Origin: Fidelibacterota bacterium UBA2242
Lineage (GTDB): Bacteria > Fidelibacterota > UBA2242
Length of the DNA stretch: 64,000 bases
Reading direction: 5' to 3'
NCBI GenBank assembly: GCA_002347855.1
Contig: DDYE01000017.1
Coordinates: 271,685-335,684 of the forward strand
The position numbers and the translations under genes are program-made. Of this stretch, positions 32,967-55,380 are shown one piece after another (positions within the stretch are counted from its first letter, which is position 1; each line of letters opens with the position of its first letter). The notes below the pieces were generated by a model. That model was not told the DNA's origin. It searched no databases and saw only the letters and a list, made by a program, of their open reading frames with translations.

Positions 32967-33001
32967 TAAACGGTGGGATGAATATGAACCGGGAAGGGAA
33001 A

Positions 33002-37923: not shown

Positions 37924-38971
37924 GCCACTCGTAACTATTATCATCTTAAACTGGAATAAATGGCAAGATACAGTCGAATGTCTCGCAAGCTTGAGCCATC
38001 TTACTTATCCTAATTATCGTATTGTGCTGGTCGATAATAATTCACTTAATGATTCTGTGACTCAGATAAAGGCTTTCTTAACGGGTCAGAGAGTGGAAGG
38101 CATTCAGACTCATTTCTCTCAATTGGTTGAAAGACCCGATATGACCAAACTGCAATTCATGATTCAAAAGATTGATAATTACCCATTCGATTATTCCTCT
38201 TTTCAAGATGACAGCGGGCAACATTTATGGTTGTTGCTTTCGGAAAACCTTGGTTTTGCGCGGGCAAATAACTTAGCAATTGCAATAGCTAGCCAGCTCT
38301 ATAACCCGGATTATTTCTTTTTGTTGAACAATGATACTGTCGTTGAACCTGATGCCGTGACGCATTTAGTGACGGCTATGACTTCCGACGCGACGATTGC
38401 CGCGGCGCAACCGGTCATTTACTATTATTCTAATCCCGTTCAGATTGCCAATGCGGGAGGCATAATTTTGCCCTGGGGACAGACACGCTATTATACCAAA
38501 ATTAGAGCCCATACCTGGCAGAAAATTACGTTCATCAATGGTTGTGCCCTTTTTTTACGTCGAGAAACTATCGAAAAGTTCGGCGCACTCACCGAGCGTT
38601 TCTTTTTTGCGGAAGAGGATTTTGAATATAGTCTACGCTTAAAACGGCAGCGTGCCAGGGCAATTTGTGTTGCTGATAGTAAGATATATCATAAAATCGG
38701 AGCATCAGAGATTGCACAAAATATTGAACGGAAAGTGGTTTTATTTGCCGTCAACCGGCTGGTTGACCTGAAACATTACTATGTGCCTATTATCTGGCGT
38801 TTCTGGGCAAGCCTTAGTTTGCTCTATTTCTGGGGTCTCTTGTTTTTTAAATATCGGGTTGGCTGGAAAAAGTCTGCTAATCTAATTTCTGAAGCCAGGC
38901 AATGGGTTCATCAAGTTTCTGAAGTTGATAAAGATACGGTTATGGCAATTCTCCGAAGGGGCGTTCAGTGA
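37907..38971 (+). CDS. Glycosyltransferase family 2
   Basis: VTIIILNWNKWQDTVECLASL...YRIVLVDNNS, a GT-A N-terminal motif, and a DxD-like FAEEDFE. Confidence 0.7.
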   Translation: MISKVEPLVTIIILNWNKWQDTVECLASLSHLTYPNYRIVLVDNNSLNDSVTQIKAFLTGQRVEGIQTHFSQLVERPDMTKLQFMIQKIDNYPFDYSSFQDDSGQHLWLLLSENLGFARANNLAIAIASQLYNPDYFFLLNNDTVVEPDAVTHLVTAMTSDATIAAAQPVIYYYSNPVQIANAGGIILPWGQTRYYTKIRAHTWQKITFINGCALFLRRETIEKFGALTERFFFAEEDFEYSLRLKRQRARAICVADSKIYHKIGASEIAQNIERKVVLFAVNRLVDLKHYYVPIIWRFWASLSLLYFWGLLFFKYRVGWKKSANLISEARQWVHQVSEVDKDTVMAILRRGVQ

Positions 38972-40248
38972 TTTTACAACTCACCAGTTTAATGTTTGCG
39001 GGAATTGTAACCTGTCTGACAGTTTTTGATAAGCGTCGCCTTAATACTATTTTAACGCCCTTCACAGTAACTGCCTGGCCCTTTGTGATAATATCTTTGT
39101 TGGTCAATTTTGTTCTGGTTTTTCTACAATTCAAGCCAATGACTCTGCGGGTACATTTTTTTATTTTAGCGAATTTGCTCATCCTCTGGCTTAGTGGTTT
39201 TGTGCTTGCCTTTTTTGTCAATGGAGGCAACCAGAGATTAGATGAGACTCCTTTGAGCGCTATTTTCAAGGTGTTTGCATCTTACGAACTTTTTCTTGTG
39301 ACAGTTAGTTGGTTAATTATTGTTGTGACTCTCTATCGGGCTTATAGCCTGCTAAGGATTTATGGTGGATTTACCTTCTTAGGTGACTATCGTTTTGAAG
39401 AATTGATGATTGTTGGTCCCGTTGCCCATCTTGTGCAAGTTGGTAAGGTCTGTTTTCTTTTGCTCTGCTTTATTTATAAGAATTCTAAGCACAAAGTGTT
39501 AATTTGGTTGACGCTGGCTGGATTGTTCATTGCTATTGCTGCTATTCAGGTGAAATACCATCTGCTCTGGTTGTTAATCATAGCGTACTTTTTCTATTAC
39601 CTTGAGAAGCCGGTAAAACAGCAGGTCAAAAATTTACTTTTAGTTATGTTTAGTGTGATAGTAATTATGAATTTGTTCTGGATTCTGCTGACCTTAGCGT
39701 GGGGGACTTTCTCCATTTCCAGTCGAGGTATCCATGAATTTTTAATTAAACAGACCATGAATTATATTACAACCGGTCCAGTAGCCTTAGACCAGTGGTT
39801 ATCGCATGGAGACTGTAAGCCAGAGTGGACGCTTTTGCTCGTATTCCTGAATTTGAAAAATGTAATTATGGGTAATCCTCTCCGGTTAAGTGGTTTAAAC
39901 TATGTCAATCTGGGTTTTATCGAGACGGGTCCAGGTTTGAGTTCTAATGTTGGTACCGCGTACGGGGTATATTATCTCATTGGTGGCTGGGTGTTTACTC
40001 TTTTTATGACAACCATAGTTTCGCTTTTTTCATACTGGATATTTTACAAAACTCGGCAGCGGAAAAATCCTTACTTAGTATTTTTTAATCTTCTGGCATT
40101 AACCTTAGGAGTTTTGACTTTTTTCGTCCAGTATTTTACTCTCCTGTCACTTTACGAAATGACAGCAATCTATATGTTCTTAATTGCCGTTTTTCAGTTC
40201 TTGAATTATATGAAAGCCCAACAATTACCGATAGAGTTAAGCCATTGA
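38968..40248 (+). CDS. Polytopic membrane protein, candidate O-antigen/oligosaccharide polymerase (Wzy-like)
   Basis: About 11-12 TM helices with a larger loop near the C-terminal third. Locus context with Wzx and Wzz. Confidence 0.45.
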   Translation: MILQLTSLMFAGIVTCLTVFDKRRLNTILTPFTVTAWPFVIISLLVNFVLVFLQFKPMTLRVHFFILANLLILWLSGFVLAFFVNGGNQRLDETPLSAIFKVFASYELFLVTVSWLIIVVTLYRAYSLLRIYGGFTFLGDYRFEELMIVGPVAHLVQVGKVCFLLLCFIYKNSKHKVLIWLTLAGLFIAIAAIQVKYHLLWLLIIAYFFYYLEKPVKQQVKNLLLVMFSVIVIMNLFWILLTLAWGTFSISSRGIHEFLIKQTMNYITTGPVALDQWLSHGDCKPEWTLLLVFLNLKNVIMGNPLRLSGLNYVNLGFIETGPGLSSNVGTAYGVYYLIGGWVFTLFMTTIVSLFSYWIFYKTRQRKNPYLVFFNLLALTLGVLTFFVQYFTLLSLYEMTAIYMFLIAVFQFLNYMKAQQLPIELSH

Positions 40249-41351
40249 ACGACGCAATACAGAATCTACGAGTGTTATTAGTCGGAGGATATCCACCGCC
40301 CTATGGGGGTGTAACTGTGCATATTCAACGTCTGCAGCATTATTTGAATAGAGCTGGCGCTAATTGCCTCGTGCTAAATCAGTTCCGTAGTGAGGGGCAA
40401 CCATCTGGGAATATAATTAATCTTTCTGGTGGGAGGTTGGCGCAGTATTTTAAGATGCGGGCTTTGTTAACCAGGACGGACGCTCAAATTATCCATTTTC
40501 ACTTTTCTAAATTGGGTAATTTCTTAATCGGGGGGAGGCATTTAATTAAAGCGGCTGGTAAGGCTATATGTGTGGCAACCTGTCATTCAGGGCAATTAGC
40601 GGTAGAGTTTGCCCACCGCCATAAATTTTATCGGTTGGCAGCAATTGATCTTATTCGGGCATTTGATCACCTGATTGCCGTGAACCCTCAGCAGGTGGAA
40701 TTTTATACTAAAGTTATTGGGATTGAAGCGATACGCGTCAGTCTAATACCAACCTTCATTCTGCCAGAAAGTAGTCAGATTGAATTGCCTCAAGCGATGC
40801 TTAATAAGGTTACTGCCCTACGAAAATGTTGCCGTTGGATTTTGATGGTCAGCGGTTATTTATTGCCATATTATGGTTTTGATTTGTTTCTGGAGGCAGT
40901 TGCTAATTTAGAACGACTCTATCATGCCAAATTTGGGCTGATTTTTATATTTTATACTAAGGCTGATGAGAATTATCGCCAATTATTATTAGCAAAAATT
41001 GAAAAACATGGTTGTAGTCTAGTCTACGAGAATATTAAGCCAAATGACTTTCTGGGGTTATTACAGCAGAGCGATCTTTTTGTGCGTCCTACTCTGGCGG
41101 ATTCTTTCGGCGTATCAGTCGCGGAGGCTTTATATCTGGGAACACCAGTGGTAGCCAGCGATGTCTGTGCGCGACAAGAAGGGGCGGTGCTTTTCAGAAG
41201 TGGTGATGTGCAGGATTTAGTAGCCAAAATTCGGGCGGTAATTGAAAATTATGCAAATATCAAAGCCACACTTACCGAAATTAATCTTCCAAATAACGCT
41301 GAGCAATTGCTGGCTTTATACTACGAGCTTATTAAACAGGGGGAAAAATGA
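40245..41351 (+). CDS. Glycosyltransferase family 4 (GT-B)
   Basis: LLVGGYPPPYGGVTVH N-terminus; C-terminal ...RPTLADSFGVSVAEALYLGTPVVASD (EX7E-like) motif. Confidence 0.7.
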   Translation: MNDAIQNLRVLLVGGYPPPYGGVTVHIQRLQHYLNRAGANCLVLNQFRSEGQPSGNIINLSGGRLAQYFKMRALLTRTDAQIIHFHFSKLGNFLIGGRHLIKAAGKAICVATCHSGQLAVEFAHRHKFYRLAAIDLIRAFDHLIAVNPQQVEFYTKVIGIEAIRVSLIPTFILPESSQIELPQAMLNKVTALRKCCRWILMVSGYLLPYYGFDLFLEAVANLERLYHAKFGLIFIFYTKADENYRQLLLAKIEKHGCSLVYENIKPNDFLGLLQQSDLFVRPTLADSFGVSVAEALYLGTPVVASDVCARQEGAVLFRSGDVQDLVAKIRAVIENYANIKATLTEINLPNNAEQLLALYYELIKQGEK

Positions 41352-43474
41352 AGCAGATTGTGCAACATTTAAAAAATGGAAGCATAGAGCTTGCGGAAGT
41401 ACCACGACCAATAGTTACCCGTGGTAAAGTATTAATCAAGACGCAGCTTAGTCTAATTTCGGTCGGAACTGAAAGGATGTTAGTCGAATTTGGTCGCTCA
41501 GGTTGGCTTGCTAAAGCCCAACAGCAACCAGATAAGGTACGTCAGGTTTTAGATAAAATTAAAACTGATGGTCTCATTGCGACGATTGAGGCTGTTACTG
41601 CCAAATTAGATGAACCAATGCCTTTAGGCTATTGTAATGTCGGGGAAATTGTGGAGATTGGCGAAGGTGTGACAGATTTACAAATTGGTGATCGTGTCGT
41701 TTCAAATGGTCCCCACGCCGAATTTGTAACTGTTTCTCAAAACTTGTGTGTTCGTATTCCAGACAGCGTGCCCGATGAAACGGCTGTTTTTACTGTCCTT
41801 GGTTCAATTGGTTTACAGGGGATTCGACTGGCTCAACCTAGTCTCGGAGAAACATTTGTCGTGACAGGTTTAGGTTTGATTGGTCTTCTGTCGGTTCAAA
41901 TCCTCCTGGCTAATGGTTGTAAAGTTATAGGTATTGATGTAAATCCCCAGCGAGTGGCTTTAGCGCGCCGCTTTGGAGCATACGCAATCAATGTCAGTAA
42001 AGAAGATCCTGTCGCAATCTGTGCTGCTTTGACGAATGGTAAAGGGGTGGACGGCGTACTGATTACGGCAGCCACTAAAAGTAACGAGCCGATTCACCAG
42101 GCTGCTCAAATGGCTCGTAAGCGTGGCAGAATTGTATTGGTTGGTGTAACAGGATTGGAACTCAATCGGGCAGATTTTTATGAAAAGGAACTAAGTTTTC
42201 AGGTTTCTTGTTCCTATGGTCCGGGCAGATATGATGAAAATTATGAGCAAAAGGGACAGGACTATCCTGTCGGTTATGTGCGCTGGACTGAAAGGCGCAA
42301 TTTTGAAGCAATTTTGGATTTAATGGCAACTAATAAATTAGATGTTCAACCGCTTATAAGCCATGTTTATCCATTTCAGCAAGCAGGCGAGGCTTACGAT
42401 ACCATAATGCAAAAGAGAGATGCGCTCGGTGTGATATTAGAGTACAAACCAAAAGTTCAAGATGAATCTGTGCGCATCGAGGTTAAGTCGGCAATATTAA
42501 AGACTGCTGCTCCCGCGGTCAATGTTGGCGTAATTGGAGTTGGTAACTACGCCAAACTTATGTTGCTACCGGCTCTTAAAGAAACAGGTGTAAATTTGAG
42601 CAGTGTGGCTGATATTGTGCCATTAGACGCAAGTTATGCCGCTCGTAAATTTGCTTTTCAGACTGCTACCAGTGATTATCATACTATTTTAGCTGATGAA
42701 GACATCAACACGGTATTTATTACCACCCGCCACGATTTACATGCCCGCTTAGTTTGTGAATTTCTTACTGCGGGTAAGAATGTTTTTGTCGAGAAGCCGC
42801 TGGCGTTGAATAAAGAGGAGTTAAGAAAAGTCGAAGAAATCTATCTGAAAGCCGATAGCCGCTTGATGGTCGGATATAATCGGCGCTTTGCTCCCCAGGT
42901 CATCAGAATGAAAGAATTGCTGATAGACAGAAGCGAACCTATTTGTATCAATATTCTGGTTAATGCGGGATACATACCGCCTGAACATTGGGTTCATGAT
43001 CCCCTGGTTGGTGGCGGACGAATCATTGGTGAGGGGTGCCATTTTGTGGACTTGATTGCTTTTTTATGTTGTAGTAAGGTGGTACAGGTTAGCGCTATTG
43101 GAGTTAGAGGCGATTATTTGCGTGACAAGGTCAGTATTAACCTGCGACTCGCTGATGGCTCAATCGGAACTATTCAATACTTAGCCAATGGCAATAAACA
43201 ATATCCTAAGGAAACAGTACAAGTTTTCAGTTCAGGACGAATCCTGGAACTCGTGAATTTTCGCAAATTAGTTGGTTATGGCTGGAAAGGTTTTCGAAAA
43301 TTTAATTTATGGAAACAAGATAAAGGGCATAAGGCAGAAATCAAAGCCTTTATCACGGCGATTTGCACTGGACAAGTTGCACCAATATCGTTCGAGGAAA
43401 TGAAAAACACAAGCGAAGCAACTTTTGCTATCATGGAAGCCCTGGAATCAAAACAGACCGTCGAAATAAAATGA
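41348..43474 (+). CDS. Bi-domain oxidoreductase: N-terminal zinc-type alcohol dehydrogenase (MDR) fused to C-terminal Gfo/Idh/MocA NAD(P)-oxidoreductase
   Basis: N-terminal half has MDR-like GVTDLQIGDRVVSNGPHAEFV and VTGLGLIGLLSVQIL; C-terminal half has VGVIGVGNYAKLMLLPAL and VFVEKPLALN Gfo/Idh/MocA motifs. Confidence 0.75.
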   Translation: MKQIVQHLKNGSIELAEVPRPIVTRGKVLIKTQLSLISVGTERMLVEFGRSGWLAKAQQQPDKVRQVLDKIKTDGLIATIEAVTAKLDEPMPLGYCNVGEIVEIGEGVTDLQIGDRVVSNGPHAEFVTVSQNLCVRIPDSVPDETAVFTVLGSIGLQGIRLAQPSLGETFVVTGLGLIGLLSVQILLANGCKVIGIDVNPQRVALARRFGAYAINVSKEDPVAICAALTNGKGVDGVLITAATKSNEPIHQAAQMARKRGRIVLVGVTGLELNRADFYEKELSFQVSCSYGPGRYDENYEQKGQDYPVGYVRWTERRNFEAILDLMATNKLDVQPLISHVYPFQQAGEAYDTIMQKRDALGVILEYKPKVQDESVRIEVKSAILKTAAPAVNVGVIGVGNYAKLMLLPALKETGVNLSSVADIVPLDASYAARKFAFQTATSDYHTILADEDINTVFITTRHDLHARLVCEFLTAGKNVFVEKPLALNKEELRKVEEIYLKADSRLMVGYNRRFAPQVIRMKELLIDRSEPICINILVNAGYIPPEHWVHDPLVGGGRIIGEGCHFVDLIAFLCCSKVVQVSAIGVRGDYLRDKVSINLRLADGSIGTIQYLANGNKQYPKETVQVFSSGRILELVNFRKLVGYGWKGFRKFNLWKQDKGHKAEIKAFITAICTGQVAPISFEEMKNTSEATFAIMEALESKQTVEIK

Positions 43475-45477
43475 ATCTTAGCCTTCCATTTTATCTTCTC
43501 AAAGAGATGGGACCGAGATGGGTTTTCTATCGTGGTCTGTACTGGCTTTACCAGCGTACTAGGCTCCAGCAATTATTTTTTCCTGCACGCCAAATTAATT
43601 TTCAGCAGTACTCAAAACTACCGCTTGATTTTTCGAAGGAAGAGATAAAGTCATGTTTAAATTTCTGGCTTGGCAAGGTGGATGAACACGCTAATCTCAG
43701 GAGTTTTTATAACGATTATCCTGAAATTCAATCTCAAATTAAAAATCGCTATACTGCCCTGAAAGCCGGCCGCTTCACCTTTTTTTCAAAGTTAGAATTT
43801 GATTTGGGATTGCCACCGAATTGGTTTTTAAGCCCACAGACCTCCAAAACCAGTCAGGCGAATTGCCACTGGACAAAAATTCGTGACTTCGATGCAAGCC
43901 TTGGTGATATTAAATTCGTCTGGGAATTATCACGTTTTGCCTGGGTTTATGATCTTGTGCGATACTATGTATTGACGGAGGATGAAGAAGCAGTAGAACT
44001 GTTCTGGTACTTATTTGAAGATTGGATTACAAAGAATTTTCCGGAAAAAGGACCGCATTGGAAATGTGGTCAGGAAATTGCCATGCGCTCTTTAGCGGTT
44101 CTATTCGTACTCCAGCATACCTTTTATGCTAAAGCAACTACCCCGACAAGAATACGTCTGGCTGGGGGCTTCTTACGGTATAATGCCCAACATATTAAGC
44201 GCAACTTTTGGTATGCTAATCGCTCAATTAAAAATAATCATACGATTAGTGAAGCTGCCGGTTTATATCTCATCGGTAATTTCCTAAAGTATCTGAAGGA
44301 ATCTGCTCAATGGAGAAAAATCGGCAAGCGTACTTTAGAACGGGAAATTCAGCGTCAGGTTTATATTGACGGAACTTATTTGCAGCATTCGTTTAATTAC
44401 GAGCGTTTAGTTGTCCAGTGGCTATGTGTGTGTCTTACCGCAAATAAATGGGGTGCAGATGAATTTTCAAGAGAAATTACCCAACGGCTAAGAAGCATGG
44501 CCGAAACGCTTTATCAACTCCAGGATGAGCATAGTGGGCAACTGCCCAATTATGGTGCAAATGATGGAACGCTTTTGCAGCCGCTAACATCCTGCGACTA
44601 TTTAGATTACCGACCACAGCTGCAAGCTGCCTACTTTTTGACCACGCGACGCCGTCTATATGTACCGGGCATCTGGGACGAATTATTAATCTGGTTGCAG
44701 GGAGTGGTTCCGGAAGAAACTGCCCGTGATAAAATTCAGCGCATCACCTCTGCTTTTGAAATTGGAGGCTACTATATTCTACGATTAACTGAAGATGAAC
44801 CTCATTTTATGTTGCGGTGTGCTAATTATCATCACCGCCCTGGGCATGCTGACATGCTTCACCTGGATTTTTGGTACGGCGGAGTAAATGTCCTCACTGA
44901 CTCTGGTACCTTTTCTTACTTTCCAGCGGATGAGGCAAAAATGGGCTTTGTCGAGACTAAAGCCCATAACACCGTCTGGGTCGATGGACGCAGTCAGATG
45001 GATCACTGGGGTGCGTTTCTTTGGACAAAATGGACTAAATCCAAACTGGTGCGTTTTGTCAAAGAAACAGAGCAAATCAAATGGGAAGGCGAGGTTTATG
45101 ACCATCAAGGAATAATCCACAATCGCAGCCTAATTCTGCGAAATGGTTTATGTATTGTCCGTGATCGAATCGTCGGCAATTTTAATTTTGCTGAGATTAA
45201 TTGGAACGTTAATGCTCTCATTTTATCCCAAAATGATTATTGGCAAATTCAGATTGGCGATAGGTCGCTTTACATTCTTACTAATTATCAGTTAGAAGCC
45301 ATCCCAGGTGAAATTTCCCGCTATTATGGTCATCTGGAAAAAATCACTCGTTTGCATAGTAGACAAAAATCAAACCAAGAGAAGGTAATTTGGGTAACAT
45401 TATTAGCGTGGAGTAATGCGGAATCACCCTTAGAAATTGATAAATTAAGACGACAATATTTATTTCGTGAAAATTGA
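43471..45477 (+). CDS. Heparinase II/III-like protein (alginate-lyase/heparinase fold; possible polysaccharide-modifying enzyme)
   Basis: About 668 aa starting MNLSLPFYLLKEMG (the tool ORF starts upstream at 43363). Central YANRSIKNNHTISEAAGLY...GTYLQHSFNYERLVVQW resembles the heparinase II/III alpha-toroid region. Confidence 0.6.
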   Translation: MNLSLPFYLLKEMGPRWVFYRGLYWLYQRTRLQQLFFPARQINFQQYSKLPLDFSKEEIKSCLNFWLGKVDEHANLRSFYNDYPEIQSQIKNRYTALKAGRFTFFSKLEFDLGLPPNWFLSPQTSKTSQANCHWTKIRDFDASLGDIKFVWELSRFAWVYDLVRYYVLTEDEEAVELFWYLFEDWITKNFPEKGPHWKCGQEIAMRSLAVLFVLQHTFYAKATTPTRIRLAGGFLRYNAQHIKRNFWYANRSIKNNHTISEAAGLYLIGNFLKYLKESAQWRKIGKRTLEREIQRQVYIDGTYLQHSFNYERLVVQWLCVCLTANKWGADEFSREITQRLRSMAETLYQLQDEHSGQLPNYGANDGTLLQPLTSCDYLDYRPQLQAAYFLTTRRRLYVPGIWDELLIWLQGVVPEETARDKIQRITSAFEIGGYYILRLTEDEPHFMLRCANYHHRPGHADMLHLDFWYGGVNVLTDSGTFSYFPADEAKMGFVETKAHNTVWVDGRSQMDHWGAFLWTKWTKSKLVRFVKETEQIKWEGEVYDHQGIIHNRSLILRNGLCIVRDRIVGNFNFAEINWNVNALILSQNDYWQIQIGDRSLYILTNYQLEAIPGEISRYYGHLEKITRLHSRQKSNQEKVIWVTLLAWSNAESPLEIDKLRRQYLFREN

Positions 45478-46709
45478 TTATGCGTGTTCTTTATATCCAC
45501 CAATATTTTAATACTCATCGTGAAGCCGGTGGGTCGCGCTCATATTCCTTAGCCAGAGCCCTCATAGCAAAAGGACATCAGGTTGTGATGTTAACTTCGA
45601 ATCGCAATAATCCTGACCTACCAGCGGTCTACTCCTGTCAGATTGATGGGATTGAAGTCGTATATGTTAAGAATCGCTATTCGAACAAGATGGGTTTTCT
45701 GCGGCGGATTTTATCCTTCTTACATTTTATGTTCATGTCTATTTTGGTGGCCTCACGAGTGCGCAATATTGATCTGGTTTTTGCTACTTCGACGCCCTTA
45801 ACAGTCGGTATACCAGGGATAATTTTTAAAAGGCTTTATAAGGTTCCTTTTGTCTTTGAAGTTCGTGATTTATGGCCTGAGTTAGCAATTGCCATGGGAA
45901 TAATTAAAAATCGAATAGTTATTAATGTAACCAGCTGGTTGGAAGCAAAAATTTATCAGGAATCTGACCATATTATCAGTTTAGCGCCGGGAATCACCAA
46001 GGGCATAATTGCTAAAAGCGTTCCGGCAGAAAAGGTGACTATGATTTCCAACGGCTGCGACCTGAATTTATTTAGAGCAGAGGTACACTCACAACCATCT
46101 AACTGGCAATTTCAGGAAGAAGATTTAGTTCTGGTTTATGCTGGCACTCATGGATTGGCGAATGGTTTACAATGGGTGATAGAGGTAGCCAAAGAAGCCA
46201 AACTGCGTCGCCAAATACGCATAAAATTTGTTTTGATTGGTGATGGTATGACTAAGCCTGATCTGATTAGACAAAAAGAGCAATTTGAATTAGACAATGT
46301 ATTTTTTCTCGATCCAATGCCTAAGCAACAATTAGTCGATTATTTAGCAGCAGCAGATATGGGTATGCAATTATTGGCAAATGTGCCTTCTTTTTATTAT
46401 GGTACATCACCCAATAAATTTTTTGATTATCTGGCGGCAGGAAAACCGGTTTTAAATAATTATCCCGGTTGGGTGGCAGACTTAATTCGTCAATGGCAAT
46501 GTGGGATTGTTGTCAGATCTGATGACTATGATGATTTTTTCAGGCAAATTGAGCCGTTAATTACTAATCGCCAATTATTGAAAGCGATGGGGGAGAGAGC
46601 GCGGAATTTGGCTTCTGCTCATTTTAGACGAGATGAGCTTGCTACGCGTTTTGTCCAGACTCTGGAGTGTACTTGTCGTGAATATCAGGAGAGGAGGACA
46701 GCTATTTAA
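45474..46709 (+). CDS. Glycosyltransferase family 4 (WbuB/WcaI-like)
   Basis: MRVLYIHQYFNTHREAGGSRSYSLARALIAKGHQVVMLTS N-terminus, characteristic of GT4 WbuB-type enzymes. Confidence 0.75.
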   Translation: MIMRVLYIHQYFNTHREAGGSRSYSLARALIAKGHQVVMLTSNRNNPDLPAVYSCQIDGIEVVYVKNRYSNKMGFLRRILSFLHFMFMSILVASRVRNIDLVFATSTPLTVGIPGIIFKRLYKVPFVFEVRDLWPELAIAMGIIKNRIVINVTSWLEAKIYQESDHIISLAPGITKGIIAKSVPAEKVTMISNGCDLNLFRAEVHSQPSNWQFQEEDLVLVYAGTHGLANGLQWVIEVAKEAKLRRQIRIKFVLIGDGMTKPDLIRQKEQFELDNVFFLDPMPKQQLVDYLAAADMGMQLLANVPSFYYGTSPNKFFDYLAAGKPVLNNYPGWVADLIRQWQCGIVVRSDDYDDFFRQIEPLITNRQLLKAMGERARNLASAHFRRDELATRFVQTLECTCREYQERRTAI

Positions 46710-47374
46710 TGGCTTCCTTAAAAGACATTGTTATTGTTGGGGCTGGGGGACATGCCAAAGAAATTGCTTATTTAATCGAAGCGATCAATCTTGAAAAACC
46801 GACCTGGAATCTTTTAGGAATGATAGAACGGGATGCGCAGAACATCGGGAAACCATGCGGTAAATATAGTGTTATTGGCGATGACACCTTTTTCCAAAAG
46901 CGTTATGCTAACCTTAATGTAGTAGTCGCAATTGGGCAACCGCAGCGAGTCAAACAAATTTATACCAGTTTGCAGAATGAATATCCGGAATTGCTCTTCC
47001 CGAATTTAATATTTCCTACCGTCCAGCCTGGTTTGCGAGAGGTAGCGATGGGAATTGGTAACATCATTTGCGAAGGAAACATTTTTACGACGGATATTCA
47101 ACTTGGCTCATTTAATTGTCTTAATCGCGGGAATAATATCAGTCATGATGTTAAAATTGGGGATTTTGTGACGATAAATCCAGGAGTTAACATTTCCGGT
47201 GGGGTAGTAATTGAGTCGGAATGCCTGATTGGTACGGGCGCAACGATTTTGCAATATTTAACAATTGGGAGAGGAGCGGTCGTCGGTGCAGGGGCAGTCG
47301 TTACGAAAAATGTTTCCCCATCTACGACTGTAATTGGAGTTCCTGCTCAACCATTAAAGAGAAAAATTGTTTAA
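46709..47374 (+). CDS. Sugar N-/O-acetyltransferase, NeuD/PglD/WbpD hexapeptide-repeat family
   Basis: N-terminal Rossmann-like IVIVGAGGHAKEI, C-terminal left-handed beta-helix hexapeptide repeats. Confidence 0.75.
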   Translation: MASLKDIVIVGAGGHAKEIAYLIEAINLEKPTWNLLGMIERDAQNIGKPCGKYSVIGDDTFFQKRYANLNVVVAIGQPQRVKQIYTSLQNEYPELLFPNLIFPTVQPGLREVAMGIGNIICEGNIFTTDIQLGSFNCLNRGNNISHDVKIGDFVTINPGVNISGGVVIESECLIGTGATILQYLTIGRGAVVGAGAVVTKNVSPSTTVIGVPAQPLKRKIV

Positions 47375-48364
47375 ATGGAGGTAGTATTGCGAGTCTTAAT
47401 TACGGGAGGTGCTGGGTATATAGGTTCAGTTTTGACCCGGCAACTTTTAGAAAAAGGATATCAAGTCCGTGTCTTGGATTGTCTGAATTATGGAGGCGAG
47501 TCAATCCTCGGTGTTTTAAGCAATCCGAATTTTGAGTTTTTACGGGGAGATATTCGCAGAAAAGCTGATGTCGCAGAAGCACTTCAGGATGTTGATGCGG
47601 TAGTGCATTTAGCGGCTATTGTGGGCGATCCGGCTTGTGCCAAACAACCACAATTAGCGCGTGAGACTAATCTTAATGCCTCACTGATGTTATATGAACT
47701 TTGCCAGAATCAATCAAGCGTGAAGCGTTTCGTTTTTGCATCCACTTGCAGTAATTATGGCAAGATGGAGGGTAGCGATTATATTGATGAGACAGCGCCG
47801 CTTAAACCGATTTCGCTTTATGCCGAATTGAAAGTAGCTTTTGAGCAGCATCTACTGAGTTCAAAAACTCGTGGCGATTTTATCCCGACCGCCTTGCGGT
47901 TTGCTACCGTTTACGGGATTTCGCCAAGGATGCGCTTTGACTTGACCGTGAATGAATTCACACGCGATGCCGCTCTGGGACGCGAGTTGGTGATTTACGG
48001 TGAGCAATTCTGGCGTCCTTATTGTCATGTAGAAGACCTGGCACGGGCGTGTGCTTTAATTCTGGAATCTCCTTGCGATAAAGTAGATCATGAGGTTTTT
48101 GGTGTCGGTGATAAATCGGAAAATTATCAGAAAAAGATGCTTGCCGAAGAAATTAAACGCATTTTACCGGAAACAAAAGTCAAGTATGTCCACAAAGATG
48201 AAGATCCGCGTGATTATCGAGTAGACTTTACCAAAATAAAAAAGCAATTAGGATTCTCAATAACCAAAACCGTTCCACAGGGAATTCGCGAAATTGTCTT
48301 TGTTATTCAGAATGGTATTTTGCACGATCCCTTCAATAAAATTTATTCAAATATCTCGGAGTAA
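47375..48364 (+). CDS. NAD-dependent nucleotide-sugar epimerase/dehydratase (extended SDR)
   Basis: VLITGGAGYIGSVL; YAELK catalytic YxxxK. Confidence 0.75.
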   Translation: MEVVLRVLITGGAGYIGSVLTRQLLEKGYQVRVLDCLNYGGESILGVLSNPNFEFLRGDIRRKADVAEALQDVDAVVHLAAIVGDPACAKQPQLARETNLNASLMLYELCQNQSSVKRFVFASTCSNYGKMEGSDYIDETAPLKPISLYAELKVAFEQHLLSSKTRGDFIPTALRFATVYGISPRMRFDLTVNEFTRDAALGRELVIYGEQFWRPYCHVEDLARACALILESPCDKVDHEVFGVGDKSENYQKKMLAEEIKRILPETKVKYVHKDEDPRDYRVDFTKIKKQLGFSITKTVPQGIREIVFVIQNGILHDPFNKIYSNISE

Positions 48365-48366
48365 GT

Positions 48367-49527
48367 ATGATTCCACTTTCTGTCCCGCACATAGCTGGTA
48401 ACGAATGGCAGTATATCAAAGAATGCCTGGATACTGAATGGGTCTCTTCAGCCGGTAAATATGTCGATTTATTTGAACAACAGGTTGCTAAACTGGCCGG
48501 TTCCAAATTTGCGATCGCTTGCGTGAATGGCACTGCTGCTTTGCAAGTTGCTTTAGAAGTTGCCGGTCTAAAACCTGACGAAGAGGTAATAGTCCCAACT
48601 CTTACCTTCATCGCTTCCGTGAATGCAGTGCGTTATAACCGAGCTGAACCAATTTTTTTTGATTGCGATGACTATTACTGTCTTAATATTGATAAAATAA
48701 TCGAGTTCATTCGACAGGAAACTATTTTTAAACATGGTGCGAGTTTTAACCGTAAGACTGGTAAGCGGATAAGAGCCTTGGTAGCAGTCCACGTTTTTGG
48801 AAATGCGGTTAATCTGGAACCACTGTTGGAGCTTTGTCACGAGCGGGGCATCCTTGTAGTCGAAGATGCAGCTGAAAGTATTGGTACAGTTTATCGCGGG
48901 GGAAAGCTGGACGGCAAAGCCACTGGTGTCGTCGGTGACATTGGTTTTTATAGTTTCAATGGCAATAAAATTATCACGACTGGAGGCGGCGGGATGATTG
49001 TTACAAATAATTCCGAGTATGCCGAACGAGCCCGTTACCTGACGACTCAAGCCAAAGATGATGAGGTTCGCTATATTCACCATAACATTGGCTACAATTA
49101 TCGTTTGACCAATATCCAGGCGGCCTTAGGCGTTGCCCAACTCGAAAAATTAGGAGAGTATATCGAAAGAAAGCGCACGAATTATCAATATTTTAAACAG
49201 GCTATTGATCAAATTCCCGGTCTCCATCTGGCTGAAGTTCCACCCTATTGTGAACCCAATTATTGGTTCTATAATTTGCAAATTGATAAGGACATCTACG
49301 GGCGGGATAGAGAAGAATTATTGGCACTTTTTACCGCAGAAAAAATTCAGGTGCGACCAGTCTGGTATTTAAATCACTGGCAAAAGCCTTATGTAAAAAA
49401 TCAAACCTATAAAATCGAAAAAGCCATCCAACTATTCGAAAAAACTTTGAATATTCCCTGTTCCGTCAATTTAACCACAGAGCAACGCACTAAGGTTATT
49501 GAGGTGCTAAAAAATGGTCAACGCTAA
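48367..49527 (+). CDS. DegT/DnrJ/EryC1/StrS-family PLP-dependent sugar aminotransferase
   Basis: IPLSVPHIAGNEWQYIKECLDTEWVSS; YSFNGNKIITTGGGGMIV, the Lys-containing PLP region. Confidence 0.85.
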   Translation: MIPLSVPHIAGNEWQYIKECLDTEWVSSAGKYVDLFEQQVAKLAGSKFAIACVNGTAALQVALEVAGLKPDEEVIVPTLTFIASVNAVRYNRAEPIFFDCDDYYCLNIDKIIEFIRQETIFKHGASFNRKTGKRIRALVAVHVFGNAVNLEPLLELCHERGILVVEDAAESIGTVYRGGKLDGKATGVVGDIGFYSFNGNKIITTGGGGMIVTNNSEYAERARYLTTQAKDDEVRYIHHNIGYNYRLTNIQAALGVAQLEKLGEYIERKRTNYQYFKQAIDQIPGLHLAEVPPYCEPNYWFYNLQIDKDIYGRDREELLALFTAEKIQVRPVWYLNHWQKPYVKNQTYKIEKAIQLFEKTLNIPCSVNLTTEQRTKVIEVLKNGQR

Positions 49528-50206
49528 TCGTTATCTGCAACGGTTAATTAAATATTCCCTGGATAAACTATTATCTATACTGGGTTTATTAATCACCTCT
49601 CCAATCTTTGTTTTTGTTGCTCTCATTCTAAAACTAAAGGGGCAAGATGTTTTTTTTAAGCAAGCAAGAGTGGGAGAGGATGGCAAAGACTTTTGGGTTT
49701 TCAAGTTCACTACAATGCCCAAAGGTTCCGAAAAATTAGGTTTAATAACGACTAGCAACGACAGCAGACCATTTGCGTTTGGGAAATTTCTACGGAAGAC
49801 TAAAATCAATGAATTACCACAATTACTGAATGTTCTCAATGGCAGTATGAGTCTAGTCGGACCACGCCCACTGGTTCGTGAACAAATAGAAGAAGGACTG
49901 ACAGCTGCTGAGATTAAAGCCTTCTATCGGATGCGGCCTGGGATTACTGGCGCAGGCTCGCTCTATTTTCACCACGAAGACCGTTTATTAGCCAACGTTG
50001 CTGAACCGCATCGGTATTATCGAGAAGTGATTCTACCTCAAAAAAAATCCATCGAACAAGCCTACGCTGAGCATTGGAATCTCTGGCTTGATATAAAACT
50101 ATTGTGGTTGACGATATGGGTTGTAATTTTAGATTGGATTGGTAAAGAGGTGACCGATGTTCAATTGGATCTTTTTAAAGATATTAGGAAAGCAGATGAA
50201 AATTAG
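49514..50206 (+). CDS. Small monotopic phosphoglycosyl transferase (bacterial sugar transferase, PglC/WbaP C-domain-like)
   Basis: Re-entrant helix LLITSPIFVFVALILKL; FKFTTM, PRP in SLVGPRPLV, and DxxY..RPGITG motifs. Confidence 0.8.
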   Translation: MVNANRYLQRLIKYSLDKLLSILGLLITSPIFVFVALILKLKGQDVFFKQARVGEDGKDFWVFKFTTMPKGSEKLGLITTSNDSRPFAFGKFLRKTKINELPQLLNVLNGSMSLVGPRPLVREQIEEGLTAAEIKAFYRMRPGITGAGSLYFHHEDRLLANVAEPHRYYREVILPQKKSIEQAYAEHWNLWLDIKLLWLTIWVVILDWIGKEVTDVQLDLFKDIRKADEN

Positions 50207-50229
50207 CTATTTAGTATCTTAAGGTATAT

Positions 50230-51228
50230 ATGGGTTTCAAATTCCCCAAAATAATTGTATTAATAAGTCTTGTCGGACTTTCTGATTGCAATTTTAATCT
50301 ACCAACTAATCATAGTAACGGCAATTTTGACCTCCAGACTCTACCTCAGGAAATGCTTTTATATATCCCAACTTATGATGGTTCTAATCAAGCTACTCAT
50401 CCCGATGTCCTTTTTTTCCCAGAAGGGAGGAACGGTATTTACTTTTATTTAGTCATGACACCTTACCCCTGGAGCAATAACCGCTATGAGAATCCAAGCC
50501 TGTTATTCAGTCGCAATGGAGTGAATTTTTACGAACCAGTAACAGGTCTAAACCCTTTGGTGCCCCAGCCAACTTATGACCATAACAATGATCCCGACCT
50601 TATTTTCAATCCGCTTACCGAGGCATTCAATATTTTTTATCTCGAAACAATGCGTCCCGATTCGCAAAACACGGTTCTATTAACCAGTCCCGATGGTATT
50701 AAATGGAGAAAAAAAACCGCTGTCCATTATGATTTGAAAGCTGGTGACCCTTTTATTTTGTCCCCTGCTGTAATATTTGTCGATAGTTGTTTCTATATGT
50801 TTTATGTAAAAGCCCAGAGCACAACTCAAACTGAAATCAATTATATTACCAGCCCTGACGGTGAAAAATGGGAAAAAGATAGTGTTAATAGGGTATCGAC
50901 CAATTTTTCCGCCCAATTTGCACCCTGGCATCTGGATGTTTTTCGGGATGAAAATTATTTCTATATGTTATGTTGTGGACCCTATAAAGATTTGAATCTC
51001 TATTTAGGACAGTCAACCGATTTACAGAATTGGAAATTTTTAGAAGAGCCAATTATCAGAAGGTCAAAGAATTTTTACGACAGTGAAAGAATATACCGCA
51101 GTTCTGGTATTGTCCAGGATAATCTTTTGGTGGTTTATTTTTCACTCCGTACAAATTTGGGACAATGGAGAATCGGTTTGAAGAAATTTTCTTTGATGGA
51201 ACTTTTTAAAAATGATTTGCACCAATAA
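50230..51228 (+). CDS. Secreted/lipoprotein BNR (Asp-box) repeat beta-propeller protein, putative glycosidase-like
   Basis: Signal peptide MGFKFPKIIVLISLVGLSDC; two Asp-box motifs, TSPDGIKW and TSPDGEKW. Confidence 0.4.
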   Translation: MGFKFPKIIVLISLVGLSDCNFNLPTNHSNGNFDLQTLPQEMLLYIPTYDGSNQATHPDVLFFPEGRNGIYFYLVMTPYPWSNNRYENPSLLFSRNGVNFYEPVTGLNPLVPQPTYDHNNDPDLIFNPLTEAFNIFYLETMRPDSQNTVLLTSPDGIKWRKKTAVHYDLKAGDPFILSPAVIFVDSCFYMFYVKAQSTTQTEINYITSPDGEKWEKDSVNRVSTNFSAQFAPWHLDVFRDENYFYMLCCGPYKDLNLYLGQSTDLQNWKFLEEPIIRRSKNFYDSERIYRSSGIVQDNLLVVYFSLRTNLGQWRIGLKKFSLMELFKNDLHQ

Positions 51229-51393: not shown

Positions 51394-53979
51394 TTGGCAA
51401 AAAGTGTCATTTTAGCTGGAGGAATTATTGTGCTTAGTTGGCTGATTATGATTTTATTGATTACCTTTTTAGCGGCACTCTTTTTCACCCGAGTTGCCCG
51501 CTCGATTGCGCTCAAATATCACATCGGTGATATGCCCAATGCCCGCAAAGTGCATAAAACCTTTATGCCCTATCTAGGAGGAGCAGCCATACTCCTGGCG
51601 ATAATTCTCGGGACGATTTTGTCGGTATATATCTTACCTGACGTTGCTGGTCCTGTGCCAAGGCGTTACTATTTCTTAGGAATAACTGCGGTAGCTATTG
51701 CCTTGGTTGGGCTTTATGATGATTTAAAAAAATTACGCTTCACGACAAAATTTTACTGCCAGTTTATCGCTGCCATGGTAGTGATCGCGGGTGGTTTGCG
51801 CTTTACCTCTATTTATATTCCGTATATCGGTGATATTTACCTGGGGTGGAGCGGGTACATATTTACCCTGCTTTGGATAATATTTATTACCAATGCCATG
51901 AATTTATTGGATGGCTTGGACGGCTTGGCAGCTGGTGTCTCATCGATTATTTTTCTGACTTTTGCTATCATTGCGTTGCATAGTGGGCGAACACTGGTAG
52001 CGCTTGTCAATTTATTACTGATTGCTGCTAACTTAGGATTTTTGAAATATAACTACCATCCGGCTACTATTTTTATGGGAGACACGGGTTCCCTCTTCCT
52101 GGGATTTGCCACGGCGATTATTTCGCTGGAAATAGGACGCATTGGAGAAAGTGACCATCTGAATGTCATTCTTCCTTTGACTGTGATGGCGATGCCAGTA
52201 TTAGATACAACTATTGCTTTTTTCAGACGAGCCAGTAAACGCATGCATCCTTTTAAAGCCGATAAAGAGCATATTCATCATCGTCTAATGTCGATAGGAT
52301 TTTCGCATAAAAATGCTGTCAAGGTCATCTATTTTATTAGTGCCTGTACTGGTCTGATGGGACTTTCTTTCATCTTTTTGGACCGAAAGGGAATCATCAC
52401 TGCACTTTTCTGCGGATTGGTCTTCACGATGATACTAATACGTCGGCTGGGATATTTTGAAATTGAGAAGAATTTAATTGTCGTGCCCAATAGCAATGGT
52501 AATGGGAACAGTTCCACTAATGGATTATTAAATGGCAATGGTCACAAAGAGCAAAAATTTATTCCTTTCGATACTTCGCAATTTGTTCAGGCGGCGCTCT
52601 TTTTCTTGAGCGATGCAATCTTCTGTTGTTTAACCTTTCTACTGGTCTATTTCTATGAAATCAAGGTAATGCTGCCCTCTAACAGTGCTCTTGCGCCTTA
52701 TGATTTAAGCTTATGGATGGTTTGGTCGGTTTTGTACTGGAGCATTTTGCTTGGTTTAAATAATCTCTATCATATTGAATGGGACACCTCGCGCATTGAT
52801 GAAATCTTCTCAGTTTTTAAAATAGTCTTTTTCGGTACGGTAGTCCTCTTTTTCCTGAGTTTTGAAATAAAAATTCCCTTTCTCGTCTCTCGCCGCGTAT
52901 TTCTGCCTTATGGTATTCTATTAACGATTGGTCTCGGCCTCGGACGTATCCTGCTGATTTCCTTTTTAAAATCCAGAGAGATTTTAGAGTTCAAGAAAAG
53001 ACCGACTATTATTATTGGACTCTCCAATTCTGCTATGAATGTCGTTAAAAAAATCAACAATATGCCCGTTCTCAAATTTCAATTGGTTGGTTTTATTGAT
53101 GATAAAAACAATGGCAATGTCGGGCAGGTAATTCAAAATCTTCCCGTATTGGGCAATTACGCCGATATTCCGCAAGTGATTAAAAAATACAAAATCAAGG
53201 AAGTCATAATTGCTATTGATGACAACGACATCAATAAAGTCATGGATTTGATTGCCTGGTTCTGTCAATACAATGTTTCGATTAAATTAGTGCCAGATTT
53301 TTACAACCTGCTGACTGGTTTTAAAACTGCTCATATTTATGGTATTTCGCTGATAAAATTTTTTGACTCCAATATGAAAACCTGGGAATGGGTGCTCAAG
53401 CGTCTAATCGACATCATCATTTCCCTCATTGTGTTAATCGTATTTGCACCGTTCTGGCTGATTATCAGCATCATTATCAAACTGGATTCGCCTGGACCCG
53501 TCTTTTATCGTCAGAAACGGGTAGGCAAGAATCGTCAGGAATATGAATTAATCAAATTTCGCTCCATGGTTCAAAATGCTGAGGAATTGACCGGACCAAA
53601 ATGGGCGGAGAAAGATGATCCGCGGGTGACCCGTTTTGGGCGCTTTTTGCGTAAATATGGCTTGGATGAAATTCCGCAATTTTTCAATGTTCTGATTGGT
53701 GATATGAGCATTGTTGGTCCTCGTCCAGAGCGTCCCTTTTTCGTCAATGAGCTGGAGCATTCGATTCAATTTTATTCACGCCGCTTGATTGTCAAGCCTG
53801 GTATTACGGGTTGGGCTCAGATTAAATATAAGTACGATGAGACCATCGAAGATGTGCGTGAGAAATTACGCTATGATTTATATTATATTGAGAATATGTC
53901 GGTGCTGCTCGATTTAAAAATAATTGTTCGAACTCTATTGGTCGGTCTGCGCAAAAAGCATCATATTGCTTACGTCTAA
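51394..53979 (+). CDS. Fusion protein: N-terminal WecA/MraY-type polyprenyl-phosphate N-acetylhexosamine-1-P transferase + linker + full-length WbaP-type polyprenyl glycosylphosphotransferase
   Basis: Residues about 1-360: [24 protein letters not shown] and [12 protein letters not shown] (PNPT/MraY-WecA signature). Asn/Gly-rich linker [17 protein letters not shown]. Residues about 400-861: four TM, a CoA-binding-like domain, then [15 protein letters not shown]...FKFRSM...[10 protein letters not shown]...[10 protein letters not shown] (bacterial sugar transferase). Probable start GTG about 51430 after GGAGGA. Confidence 0.7.
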
Positions 53980-54102
53980 TATTCTCTAAGGGTTTCGCAT
54001 AAAAATTCCTCACGTGATGGTAAAATTTTTCGGAAGGCTATTTATTATCCTATTTTGATTCCGAAAAAATTTTTATTTTATGCCGTCAATCTTGGAGAAT
54101 TC

Positions 54103-55380
54103 ATGTTAGACTTGAAAGCTATACGTTCTGAACCTGAAAAATTCCTGCGGTTATTAGAAGCCAAAGGCGCTGCTGAGAACTTGAACCGGCTCCTCGACCT
54201 GGATTACCAGCGGCGTCAGTTAGTGACAAAAACCGATGAGTTAAAAAGTCTGCGCAATCGCGTAAGCGACGAGATAGCCCGGTTAAAAAGAGCGGGAGCA
54301 GCAGCTGAAGATAAAATTAAAGAAATGAAATCCGTCAGCCTGCAGATAAAAGAGCAGGATGAGCAAATCCGCTCACTTGAAGAGCAAATTCACCAGATAT
54401 TAATCACACTCCCCAATATACCCCACGCTTCTGTTAAAATAGGACGAAGCGCGGCTGACAACGAGGTGGTAAAAATCTGGGGAGAGGTGCCGACTTACGA
54501 TTTTCCACTTAAAGATCATCTCGATTTAGCGGAGAATCTTGGTATTATTGATTTCAAGCGGGCGGCGAAAATTTCGGGAACTGGTTTCCCGCTTTATGTC
54601 GGAGACGGGGCAGTTTTGGAGCGGGCGCTAGTAAATTTCATGCTGGATTTTCATCGTAAAAAACACGGCTACCGTGAAGTTTTTCCACCATTTCTGGTCA
54701 ATCGTGATTCTGCCTTCAGTACCGGTCAATTGCCTAAACTCGAAGAAGATATGTACTTGACCAGTGAAGATGACTTATTCTTAATTCCAACTGCCGAGGT
54801 TCCGGTCACCAATATTCATCGCGACGAAATCATACCTGAAAACAAGTTGCCAATCAAATATGTCGCCTATTCCGGCTGTTTCCGTCGGGAAGCTGGTTCT
54901 TATGGCAAAGAGACGCGCGGTCTTTCTCGGGTGCATCAATTTAATAAAGTCGAATTGGTCTGGTTCACGATCCCGGAAACATCCTATGACGTTCATGAGA
55001 AGTTACTGCAAGATGCTGAGGAAATTTTACAAGCATTAAATTTACACTATCGAGTTGTCTCACTGTGCTCGGGTGATTTGAGTTTTGCGGCAGCAAAATG
55101 CTATGATATTGAAGTCTGGGCGCCTGGGACAGGTAAATATTTTGAGGTTTCAAGCGTTAGTAACTTTGAGGATTTTCAGGCTCGACGGGCAAATATTCGT
55201 TACCGCCGCTCGGGCGATAATAGAGTTGGTTATGTGCATACCCTGAATGGTTCCGGAGTAGCAACACCCCGACTGATGATTGCCCTTTTGGAGACCTATC
55301 AGACTGACGAGGGAACAATCGTAGTTCCGGAAGCTCTGCAACCTTATACTGGTTTTAGTTTGATTAAAACTACGGTTTGA
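54103..55380 (+). CDS. serS: Seryl-tRNA synthetase
   Basis: MLDLKAIRSEPE... N-terminal coiled coil; class II motifs FRRE and GSG-TPR. The tool ORF starts at TTG 54055, but ATG 54103 has a GGAG RBS. Confidence 0.9.
   Translation: MLDLKAIRSEPEKFLRLLEAKGAAENLNRLLDLDYQRRQLVTKTDELKSLRNRVSDEIARLKRAGAAAEDKIKEMKSVSLQIKEQDEQIRSLEEQIHQILITLPNIPHASVKIGRSAADNEVVKIWGEVPTYDFPLKDHLDLAENLGIIDFKRAAKISGTGFPLYVGDGAVLERALVNFMLDFHRKKHGYREVFPPFLVNRDSAFSTGQLPKLEEDMYLTSEDDLFLIPTAEVPVTNIHRDEIIPENKLPIKYVAYSGCFRREAGSYGKETRGLSRVHQFNKVELVWFTIPETSYDVHEKLLQDAEEILQALNLHYRVVSLCSGDLSFAAAKCYDIEVWAPGTGKYFEVSSVSNFEDFQARRANIRYRRSGDNRVGYVHTLNGSGVATPRLMIALLETYQTDEGTIVVPEALQPYTGFSLIKTTV

Follow-up and report, generated by a model that had tools for sequence, protein, structure and literature searches.

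A fused polytopic–monotopic phosphoglycosyl transferase beside a polysaccharide locus of Fidelibacterota bacterium UBA2242, a candidate bifunctional initiator of envelope-glycan synthesis

Phosphoglycosyl transferases (PGTs) that initiate glycan synthesis commit scarce undecaprenyl phosphate (Und-P) to one glycan pathway or another. Fusions of a polytopic with a monotopic PGT were reportedly noted by O'Toole, Imperiali and Allen in a sequence-similarity-network survey of the monotopic PGT superfamily (PNAS 2021). Here, we analyze such a fusion, encoded on the forward strand of a 64,000-nt stretch of DNA from Fidelibacterota bacterium UBA2242 (contig DDYE01000017.1, positions 271,685 to 335,684; hereafter, the window). 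On that account, the window protein is a new member of a class whose architecture was already known. GxxDD is a signature of the polytopic PGTs, and the monotopic PGTs follow a ping-pong mechanism in which the Asp of a catalytic dyad forms a covalent phosphosugar intermediate (10.1101/2023.09.19.558431). Monotopic PGTs also occur as bifunctional proteins (BiPGTs), whose PGT core carries a fused acetyltransferase or glycosyltransferase domain (PMC11626204; PMC10186338). Polytopic partners found no mention in the literature searched, and a full-text search, which did not cover the 2021 PNAS survey, returned no description of the fusion.

Each half of the window protein resembles a well-described enzyme. 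The N-terminal, polytopic (PNPT) half shares all PNPT motifs with WecA and TagO, including the HIHH-type loop, and is predicted to share their 11 transmembrane helices and cytoplasmic C-terminus; like wecA, the fusion gene lies outside the variable part of a glycan locus. It differs from WecA in not being an ortholog by the WecA model, and from WecA and TagO in its covalently attached large PGT of 470 residues. That C-terminal half has the four transmembrane helices, CoA_binding_3 domain, re-entrant helix and Asp-Glu catalytic domain of WbaP, WcaJ and CpsE. However, its segment from KFRSM to DDPR is shorter than that of WbaP (seen as alignment gaps), it scores under the equivalog cutoffs of both WbaP and WcaJ, and its N-terminus is tethered to an 11-helix enzyme rather than free. 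With the BiPGTs, the protein shares the principle of a same-pathway enzyme fused to a monotopic PGT, although the partner here is neither a downstream nor a sugar-modifying enzyme but a second initiating one, with which it competes for a common acceptor lipid. Added here are evidence of constraint on both halves in the clade of the window protein, the decay of either half elsewhere, the serS-linked position of the gene and a small neighboring PGT with Asn-Glu in place of the dyad. To our knowledge, the 2021 survey described neither the decay of either half, nor the serS-linked core position, nor the shift in conservation between domains.

A single gene for two phosphoglycosyl transferases

A sequence-only reading that preceded this analysis had described one 861-aa open reading frame (ORF) in which a polytopic PNPT is joined to a full-length WbaP-type PGT, and both statements were borne out. 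The frame comprises 861 codons plus a stop, opens with TTG and has no internal stop or frame change (Table 1), and the presence of both enzymes in one polypeptide is supported by profiles, matches to solved chains and the predicted structure. The TTG start taken in that reading is probably 36 nt too early. A downstream GTG is favored as the true start because GGAGG lies 7 nt upstream of it, homolog N-termini align there, and P0001, the 849-aa form called in public assemblies, is 100% identical to the window protein. Residues are numbered by the 849-aa form, except in Pfam and NCBIfam matches, whose coordinates are those of the 861-aa form.

Profile hidden Markov model searches recovered all three Pfam families that the earlier reading had named: Glycos_transf_4 (PF00953; 139.1 bits against a cutoff of 27, residues 95–246), CoA_binding_3 (PF13727; 64 bits, residues 458–634) and Bac_transf (PF02397; 235.4 bits, residues 669–851), the latter two well over their gathering scores. 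Given domain E-values of 1e-17 to 1e-70, a chance match is excluded. The NCBIfam model TIGR03025 (EPS_sugtrans, exopolysaccharide (EPS) polyprenyl glycosylphosphotransferase) matched the large-PGT half end to end over residues 406–855, with 438.5 bits against 295.55. Four further models remained under their cutoffs, namely those of WecA (TIGR02380; residues 21–324, 146.4 bits against 326.05), MraY (equivalog TIGR00445; 82.2 against 192.05), the WbaP subfamily (TIGR03022; 229.3, far under 403) and WcaJ (equivalog TIGR03023; 401.4, slightly under 410.75), and for this reason no donor sugar was assigned to either half. The nearest unfused relatives of the PNPT half, of about 350 aa and 38–45% identity, are annotated as MraY-family or glycosyltransferase family 4 (GT4) glycosyltransferases or as N-acetylglucosamine (GlcNAc)-1-phosphate transferases. 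Identification of this half as MraY itself was considered and rejected, as it scores under the MraY cutoff and its nearest relatives are not annotated as MraY proper. Among the matches listed, the best unfused relatives of the large-PGT half, 38–44% identical, come from Cytophagia, Bacteroidota and Rhodothermales.

Comparison with solved structures leads to the same assignment. The N-terminal 315 residues align with MraY chains (E down to 1e-16) and with human GPT, the C-terminal 360 residues with WbaP chains including 8t53 (E about 1e-36 to 1e-33), and residues 655–840 with PglC chains (E 1e-28 to 1e-29). An AlphaFold model built with 62 homologs reached a mean predicted local distance difference test score (pLDDT) of 79.3 and a predicted TM-score of 0.76. 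In Foldseek searches, its N-terminal half matched MraY with target-normalized TM-scores of 0.7–0.8 and human GPT with 0.6–0.7; its C-terminal half matched PglC with a TM-score of 0.85, as well as WbaP, and the accessory domain gave weak matches to Rossmann domains. The model contains 11 helices in residues 1–343 and a four-helix transmembrane bundle (382–414, 423–443, 455–479 and 488–516). The re-entrant helix is modeled as a helix-break-helix (651–671/673–686) that breaks just before the invariant Pro674, and this segment, residues 651–686, is the most hydrophobic of the protein.

The modeled topology is coherent with a covalent fusion, as the eleventh PNPT helix is predicted to return the chain to the cytoplasm, where the large PGT begins. 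Across the 11 and 4 helices, the predicted cytoplasmic loops hold 12 Lys/Arg residues against 4 in the periplasmic loops, with loops assigned to sides by alignment to the MraY motifs. With this topology, both active sites are predicted to lie on the cytoplasmic face of the inner membrane. If the last six residues are left aside, pLDDT falls below 50 only in the linker at residues 344–377, consistent with the flexible Asn/Gly-rich linker proposed earlier. This linker is specific to the Marinimicrobia clade, however: in the homolog alignment it is an insertion confined to that clade, the other clades have a shorter, ordinary joining sequence, and identity to them across the region is 8–10%.

The low-complexity linker is the sole place where an assembly join, a frameshift concealing a stop codon or a merger of two adjacent genes could go unnoticed, and no support for such an artefact was found. 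Independent sequencing runs yielded 18 contigs that encode the identical 849-aa protein with unchanged neighbors. The junction is continuous in more than 100 homolog clusters from several phyla and many assemblers, including some whose linkers are shorter and free of low complexity, and the architecture also appears in sequences named Caldithrix abyssi and on a 5-Mb Calditrichota chromosome. We therefore give an artefact practically no credence; the fusion is confirmed as one real, uninterrupted gene. An internal start that would yield a separate large PGT was also rejected, as the stretch from the linker to the beginning of the four-helix bundle contains no Met.

The sequence-only reading had suggested looking for this architecture in other genomes, where it proved to be common to more than 100 homolog clusters with identities from 100% down to 35%. 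A first homology search listed 120 clusters, and nearly all the full-length ones carried the same three Pfam domains; their source names include Marinimicrobia/Neomarinimicrobiota, Ignavibacteriae, Bacteroidetes/Bacteroidota, Calditrichaeota and Caldithrix abyssi, and Zixibacteria and further Caldithrix members also belong to the family. A HMMER scan of 1.84 billion representatives at 50% identity gave 23,022 matches at E <= 1e-30, and the best 150 of these included 14 full-length clusters and 3 fragments with a PNPT N-terminus and a large-PGT C-terminus. On that count the architecture is rare, and it is widespread within the FCB group (Fibrobacterota-Chlorobiota-Bacteroidota and allies), occurring in Marinimicrobia, Calditrichota, Ignavibacteria/Bacteroidota and Zixibacteria. 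A genome scan with a generic monotopic-PGT pattern was uninformative on the distribution of the fusion, as all 80 loci among the matches listed held ordinary unfused large PGTs. Other unusual large PGTs were seen among the best representatives, namely P0175 (880 aa), P0227 (869 aa), P0127, P0128, P0132, P0199 and P0215: some of these proteins appear to consist of two tandem large-PGT modules, and others carry N-terminal extensions of about 290–480 aa that are not PNPTs.

Catalytic motifs and their decay among relatives

All motifs quoted in the earlier reading were located at verified coordinates (Table 1), and by sequence both halves appear to be complete enzymes. Every PNPT motif residue is invariant across the 62 homologs. 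In the monotopic half, a KFRS motif aligned with WbaP and PglC accompanies the catalytic dyad Asp746-Glu747, GPRPE and PGITGWAQ. A motif census of the 120 matches defined three clades. Clade 1 is Marinimicrobia-like, with at least 56% identity, and includes the window protein; clade 2 is Ignavibacteria/Bacteroidota-like (38–43%). Both keep Asp-Glu, and the dyad, KFRS, GPRPE and PGITGWAQ are retained in all of their informative sequences. Clade 3 is Calditrichota-like (35–38%) and includes Caldithrix abyssi and Calditrichota GD2 sequences; here, Tyr-Lys replaces Asp-Glu, KFRSM is lost together with a deletion of 9–17 residues, and every PNPT motif is kept.

Decay is also evident among the 14 full-length clusters of the HMMER scan. 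Both motif sets are intact in P0028, which represents the cluster of the window protein, and in P0051 and P0122. The dyad is lost in 10 of the 14, six of which have lost GPRP as well. P0121, an 821-aa protein with 46% identity on a single 5.5-kb JGI contig, shows the reverse of the Calditrichota-type decay: it combines an intact monotopic half with the destruction of all four PNPT motifs, with LAINF in place of YDDLK, HIYNRL in place of HIHHRL, FMGDTGS likewise replaced, and YAVSMFDKIKGL among the stretches standing where the motifs should be. This reverse case is represented by a single sequence.

Conservation, expressed as mean within-clade pairwise identity, shifts between domains in parallel. 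For the PNPT half, the accessory (Rossmann) domain and the monotopic catalytic domain, respectively, the means are 63%, 64% and 78% in clade 1, 60%, 62% and 74% in clade 2, and 59%, 67% and 61.5% in clade 3, where the dyad is lost. Thus, the most conserved region is the monotopic catalytic domain in clades 1 and 2 and the accessory domain in clade 3. These patterns suggest that both halves are under catalytic constraint in the clade of the window protein. Given that relatives remain fused even where one of the two active sites is degenerate, these patterns also suggest that the fusion is kept for a further, non-catalytic reason involving the large-PGT scaffold.

The earlier reading had left two outcomes side by side, a coupling of two chemistries or a non-catalytic half. 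The intact motif sets favor the first for the window protein, and the second is met in relatives, where either half may be degenerate. It is nevertheless necessary to consider whether one half alone is catalytic in the window protein as well, with the other acting as a pseudo-enzyme scaffold, a dimerization module or a nucleotide sensor. The dyad losses in 10 of 14 clusters (with GPRP gone in six), the Tyr-Lys substitution throughout clade 3 and the ruined PNPT motifs of P0121 all lend themselves to this explanation, as do the gutted PGT domains of neighboring proteins described below, which indicate that pseudo-PGT scaffolds recur in these phyla. Nonetheless, the window protein and all of clades 1 and 2 keep every catalytic motif of both halves. 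In these clades, no part of the protein is better conserved than the monotopic catalytic domain, contrary to the effect expected of relaxed constraint. A pseudo-enzyme half in the window protein is therefore unlikely.

Table 1. Features of the fusion gene and its surroundings, in window coordinates
Feature	Position	Strand	Basis
Maximal ORF (TTG start, 861 codons plus stop)	51394..53979	+	ORF list, sequence
Probable fusion gene (GTG start, 849 aa, TAA stop)	51430..53979	+	P0001 100% identical, 849 aa; homolog N-termini
Ribosome-binding site GGAGG, 7 nt 5' of GTG 51430	51418..51422	+	Sequence
Polytopic PGT (PNPT, WecA/TagO-type) module, residues 1–343, 11 predicted transmembrane helices	51430..52458	+	PF00953, MraY alignment, Foldseek
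GLYDD (G94, D97, D98)	51709–51723	+	Aligned with MraY DD motif
NxxNxxDGxDG motif, residues 155–165	51892–51924	+	Aligned with MraY motif
FMGDTGS (D218)	52072–52092	+	Aligned with MraY MGD motif
HIHHRL, residues 281–286, His-rich cytoplasmic loop	52270–52287	+	Aligned with MraY HH motif
Cytoplasmic low-complexity Asn/Gly linker, residues 344–377	52459..52560	+	pLDDT <50; insertion only in Marinimicrobia clade
Four-transmembrane-helix bundle of large-PGT module, residues 378–516	52561..52977	+	AlphaFold helices, TIGR03025
Rossmann-like accessory domain (CoA_binding_3; "DUF" of large PGTs), residues 517–648	52978..53373	+	PF13727, WbaP alignment
Monotopic PGT catalytic domain, residues 649–849	53374..53976	+	PF02397, WbaP/PglC matches
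KRLID of re-entrant helix (K657-R658..D661)	53398–53412	+	Sequence
Pro674 of re-entrant helix	53449–53451	+	Sequence; invariant
Asp746-Glu747 catalytic dyad	53665–53670	+	Aligned with DE of WbaP chains
GPRPE	53716–53730	+	Aligned with WbaP
PGITGWAQ	53797–53820	+	Aligned with WbaP
Small monotopic-PGT-like protein, 230 aa, Bac_transf	49514..50206	+	Pfam
Asn99 codon AAT in place of dyad Asp (Asn99-Glu100)	49808–49810	+	Sequence
Wzx-type polysaccharide gene cluster upstream of fusion	31644..51228	+	Profile matches
serS, first of conserved housekeeping genes 3' of fusion	54055..55380	+	Four Marinimicrobia contexts

Genomic setting of the fusion

The fusion gene occupies the constant border of an otherwise variable glycan locus, as a core gene would. 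The order fusion, serS, aldolase, acyltransferase, DUF2851 and cytidylyltransferase is kept in all four Marinimicrobia contexts examined (the window, which corresponds to L001, and L087, L089 and L090), and three different arrangements lie upstream of it. The cassette of the window recurs in L090; L089 has another one (Wza-Wzz-Wzx-GT-FemAB-deacetylase) and no further PGT within 10 kb; and L087 has housekeeping genes (class I tRNA synthetase, TatD and rRNA adenine dimethylase). A core position beside serS with varying upstream genes is what one would expect of a shared initiator. In the window, the genes of the upstream cluster encode, in order, a nucleotide-sugar dehydrogenase, dTDP-glucose 4,6-dehydratase, Wza-like, Wzz-like and Wzx proteins; a glycosyltransferase family 2 (GT2) enzyme, a DUF6337 protein, a GT4 enzyme, a 708-aa ADH + GFO/IDH/MocA oxidoreductase and a heparinase II/III-like protein; and a second GT4 enzyme, a NeuD/PglB-family acetyltransferase, a short-chain dehydrogenase/reductase, a LegC-family aminotransferase, the small PGT and an ORF of unknown function.

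That the fusion ends a single Wzx-type cluster in several genomes, and that its two domains are co-localized with both active sites predicted to be cytoplasmic, could be taken to mean that both sites serve one polymer, for example with the monotopic half adding a sugar-phosphate to undecaprenyl pyrophosphate (Und-PP)-linked N-acetylhexosamine (HexNAc) and the fusion providing substrate channeling. However, both superfamilies are described as transferring a sugar-1-phosphate to polyprenol phosphate in chemically equivalent reactions (PMC10186338; 10.1101/2023.09.19.558431), and no monotopic PGT with another acceptor was reported in the literature searched. Members with one dead half evidently function, which makes obligate coupling unlikely, and the linker is predicted to be long and disordered, with nothing in the model to suggest a shared pocket. 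We consider a single shared pathway very improbable.

The small PGT encoded upstream of the fusion bears on the earlier count of three initiating-transferase domains at this locus. It is a genuine Bac_transf protein, as that count held, but it is doubtful as an initiator, with Asn in the place of the nucleophilic Asp. When aligned with PglC, INELPQ stands opposite LDELPQ and Asn99 faces the catalytic Asp. Asn-Glu was found in 117 of its 120 closest homologs, at identities from 100% to about 41% (the other three failed the pattern match), and the remaining PGT motifs are intact; these homologs come from Marinimicrobia, Fidelibacterota and Desulfobacteraceae, and some are named "EpsL". Judging from this frequency, the protein belongs to a conserved Asn-Glu subfamily and does not reflect a sequencing error. 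Since Asn cannot form the acyl-phosphate intermediate, the protein is either inactive or acts in another way; in the former case, the 64-kb window shows no canonical initiator other than the fusion.

A promoter and terminator scan of 49–55 kb returned as many sites as expected from shuffled sequence, and no promoter is claimed. A perfect TATAAT at 51241–51246, with a "-35" hexamer matching at only 3 of 6 positions, was unreported by the scan. The gene is preceded by a 201-nt gap, and the corresponding gaps in relatives measure 100–250 nt, which only hints at a separate transcription unit. Guanine-plus-cytosine (GC) content is 0.38–0.39 in the fusion region against 0.41–0.46 nearby; horizontal transfer was considered as an explanation and rejected, as the Wzx region is equally low and the value resembles what the codons of membrane proteins would give.

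The fusion genes of clades 2 and 3 are situated within polysaccharide clusters, and each is followed by a gene for a protein with GT2, CoA_binding_3 and Bac_transf domains. Such proteins of 667–694 aa were observed in Calditrichota and clade-2 genomes (L085:12469–14553, L086:14445–16496 and L088:14462–16465). Their PGT domain lacks the region from KFRSM to Asp-Glu, and they look like GT2 enzymes on a pseudo-large-PGT scaffold.

Several further observations concern the genes around the fusion. A three-gene block encoding the ~708-aa ADH_zinc_N + GFO/IDH/MocA oxidoreductase, a heparinase II/III-like protein and a GT4 enzyme (window 41348–46709, +; L085:1–7584; L090:1–5279) lies upstream of the fusion in both Marinimicrobia and the Calditrichota chromosome, which suggests a conserved sugar-modification module. 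Its heparinase II/III-like ORF (43363–45477, +) is 704 aa long with a TTG start and overlaps the preceding gene by 112 nt; on identical contigs the gene is called as 668 aa with a 4-nt overlap, which places the probable true start near 43471. A 332-aa ORF that separates the small PGT from the fusion (50230–51228, +) had no NCBIfam match and a sub-threshold match to the Pfam GH32 N-terminal family (21.9 against 22.1 bits); L090 has a 336-aa ORF at the equivalent position. Directly 5' of the polysaccharide cluster, a 707-aa ORF (29360–31483, +) matched no Pfam family at E <= 1e-5.

Proposed role in envelope-glycan initiation

The best reading, which we consider somewhat more likely than not, is that the fusion is a genuine bifunctional initiating enzyme of envelope-glycan synthesis. 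The PNPT half would transfer a HexNAc-1-phosphate, most likely GlcNAc-1-phosphate, from a UDP-sugar to Und-P by a ternary-complex mechanism; the annotation of its nearest stand-alone relatives, at 38–45% identity, points to Und-PP-GlcNAc as the probable product. The monotopic half would transfer a different sugar-1-phosphate, probably a WcaJ/EPS-type hexose given its profile score (401 bits against a cutoff of 410.75), through a covalent intermediate on Asp746. A single protein would thereby initiate two lipid-linked glycans, drawing on one scarce pool of Und-P for both, and it may act as a shared initiator for whichever cassette lies upstream, much as wecA serves several enterobacterial pathways.

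The large-PGT scaffold may contribute more than catalysis. Polytopic PGTs such as MraY are dimers. The accessory domain of Salmonella WbaP forms a homodimer interface and binds uridine monophosphate (UMP), UDP and UTP; UMP is inhibitory to WbaP (apparent IC50, 4.1 uM), and the WbaP authors note that PGTs release it regardless of the sugar transferred (PMC10942596). By analogy, the scaffold may provide its partner with dimerization and UMP-sensing feedback, as both reactions would release UMP. Such a contribution would explain why the fusion outlasts the loss of the dyad; it is the most plausible non-catalytic reason, and it remains speculation.

Several considerations weigh against a bifunctional shared initiator. 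Most deep-branching clusters have one dead half, so that the fusion is in general maintained by something other than dual activity. Strong conservation of intact motifs is no proof of activity, and the sub-cutoff profile scores leave the sugar specificity of both halves unassigned. The shared-initiator role is drawn from synteny alone, the proposed UMP-mediated cross-regulation is extrapolated from Salmonella WbaP, and the literature search found no biochemical or functional study of any fusion member.

A more far-reaching proposal is that the protein is an obligate two-module machine, in which the large-PGT scaffold, with its four transmembrane helices, UMP-binding domain and domain-swapped dimer, allosterically gates the PNPT and vice versa, so that the two initiations are cross-regulated via UMP. 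This proposal is tentative and, in our judgment, rather doubtful. If it is true, the decay of active sites across FCB-group lineages would be the evolutionary trace of mutual dependence, and the family would be the first natural setting in which to study how the two PGT superfamilies communicate. The Asn-Glu small PGT encoded nearby could then be one more partner, of a non-canonical sort.

These findings have a practical consequence for genome annotation. Automatic annotation names fusion proteins by one half alone and thereby hides one initiating activity, a loss that touches the genomes of Marinimicrobia, Ignavibacteria/Bacteroidota and Calditrichota. For the Calditrichota proteins, which lack the dyad, the label "sugar transferase" refers to the half that is probably inactive. 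Furthermore, the family offers three comparable states, with both sites intact or either one dead, and the window protein is one of the both-intact forms. For the question of how cells balance competing Und-P-dependent pathways, the fusion is a ready-made system in which the co-regulation of two initiation reactions can be tested.

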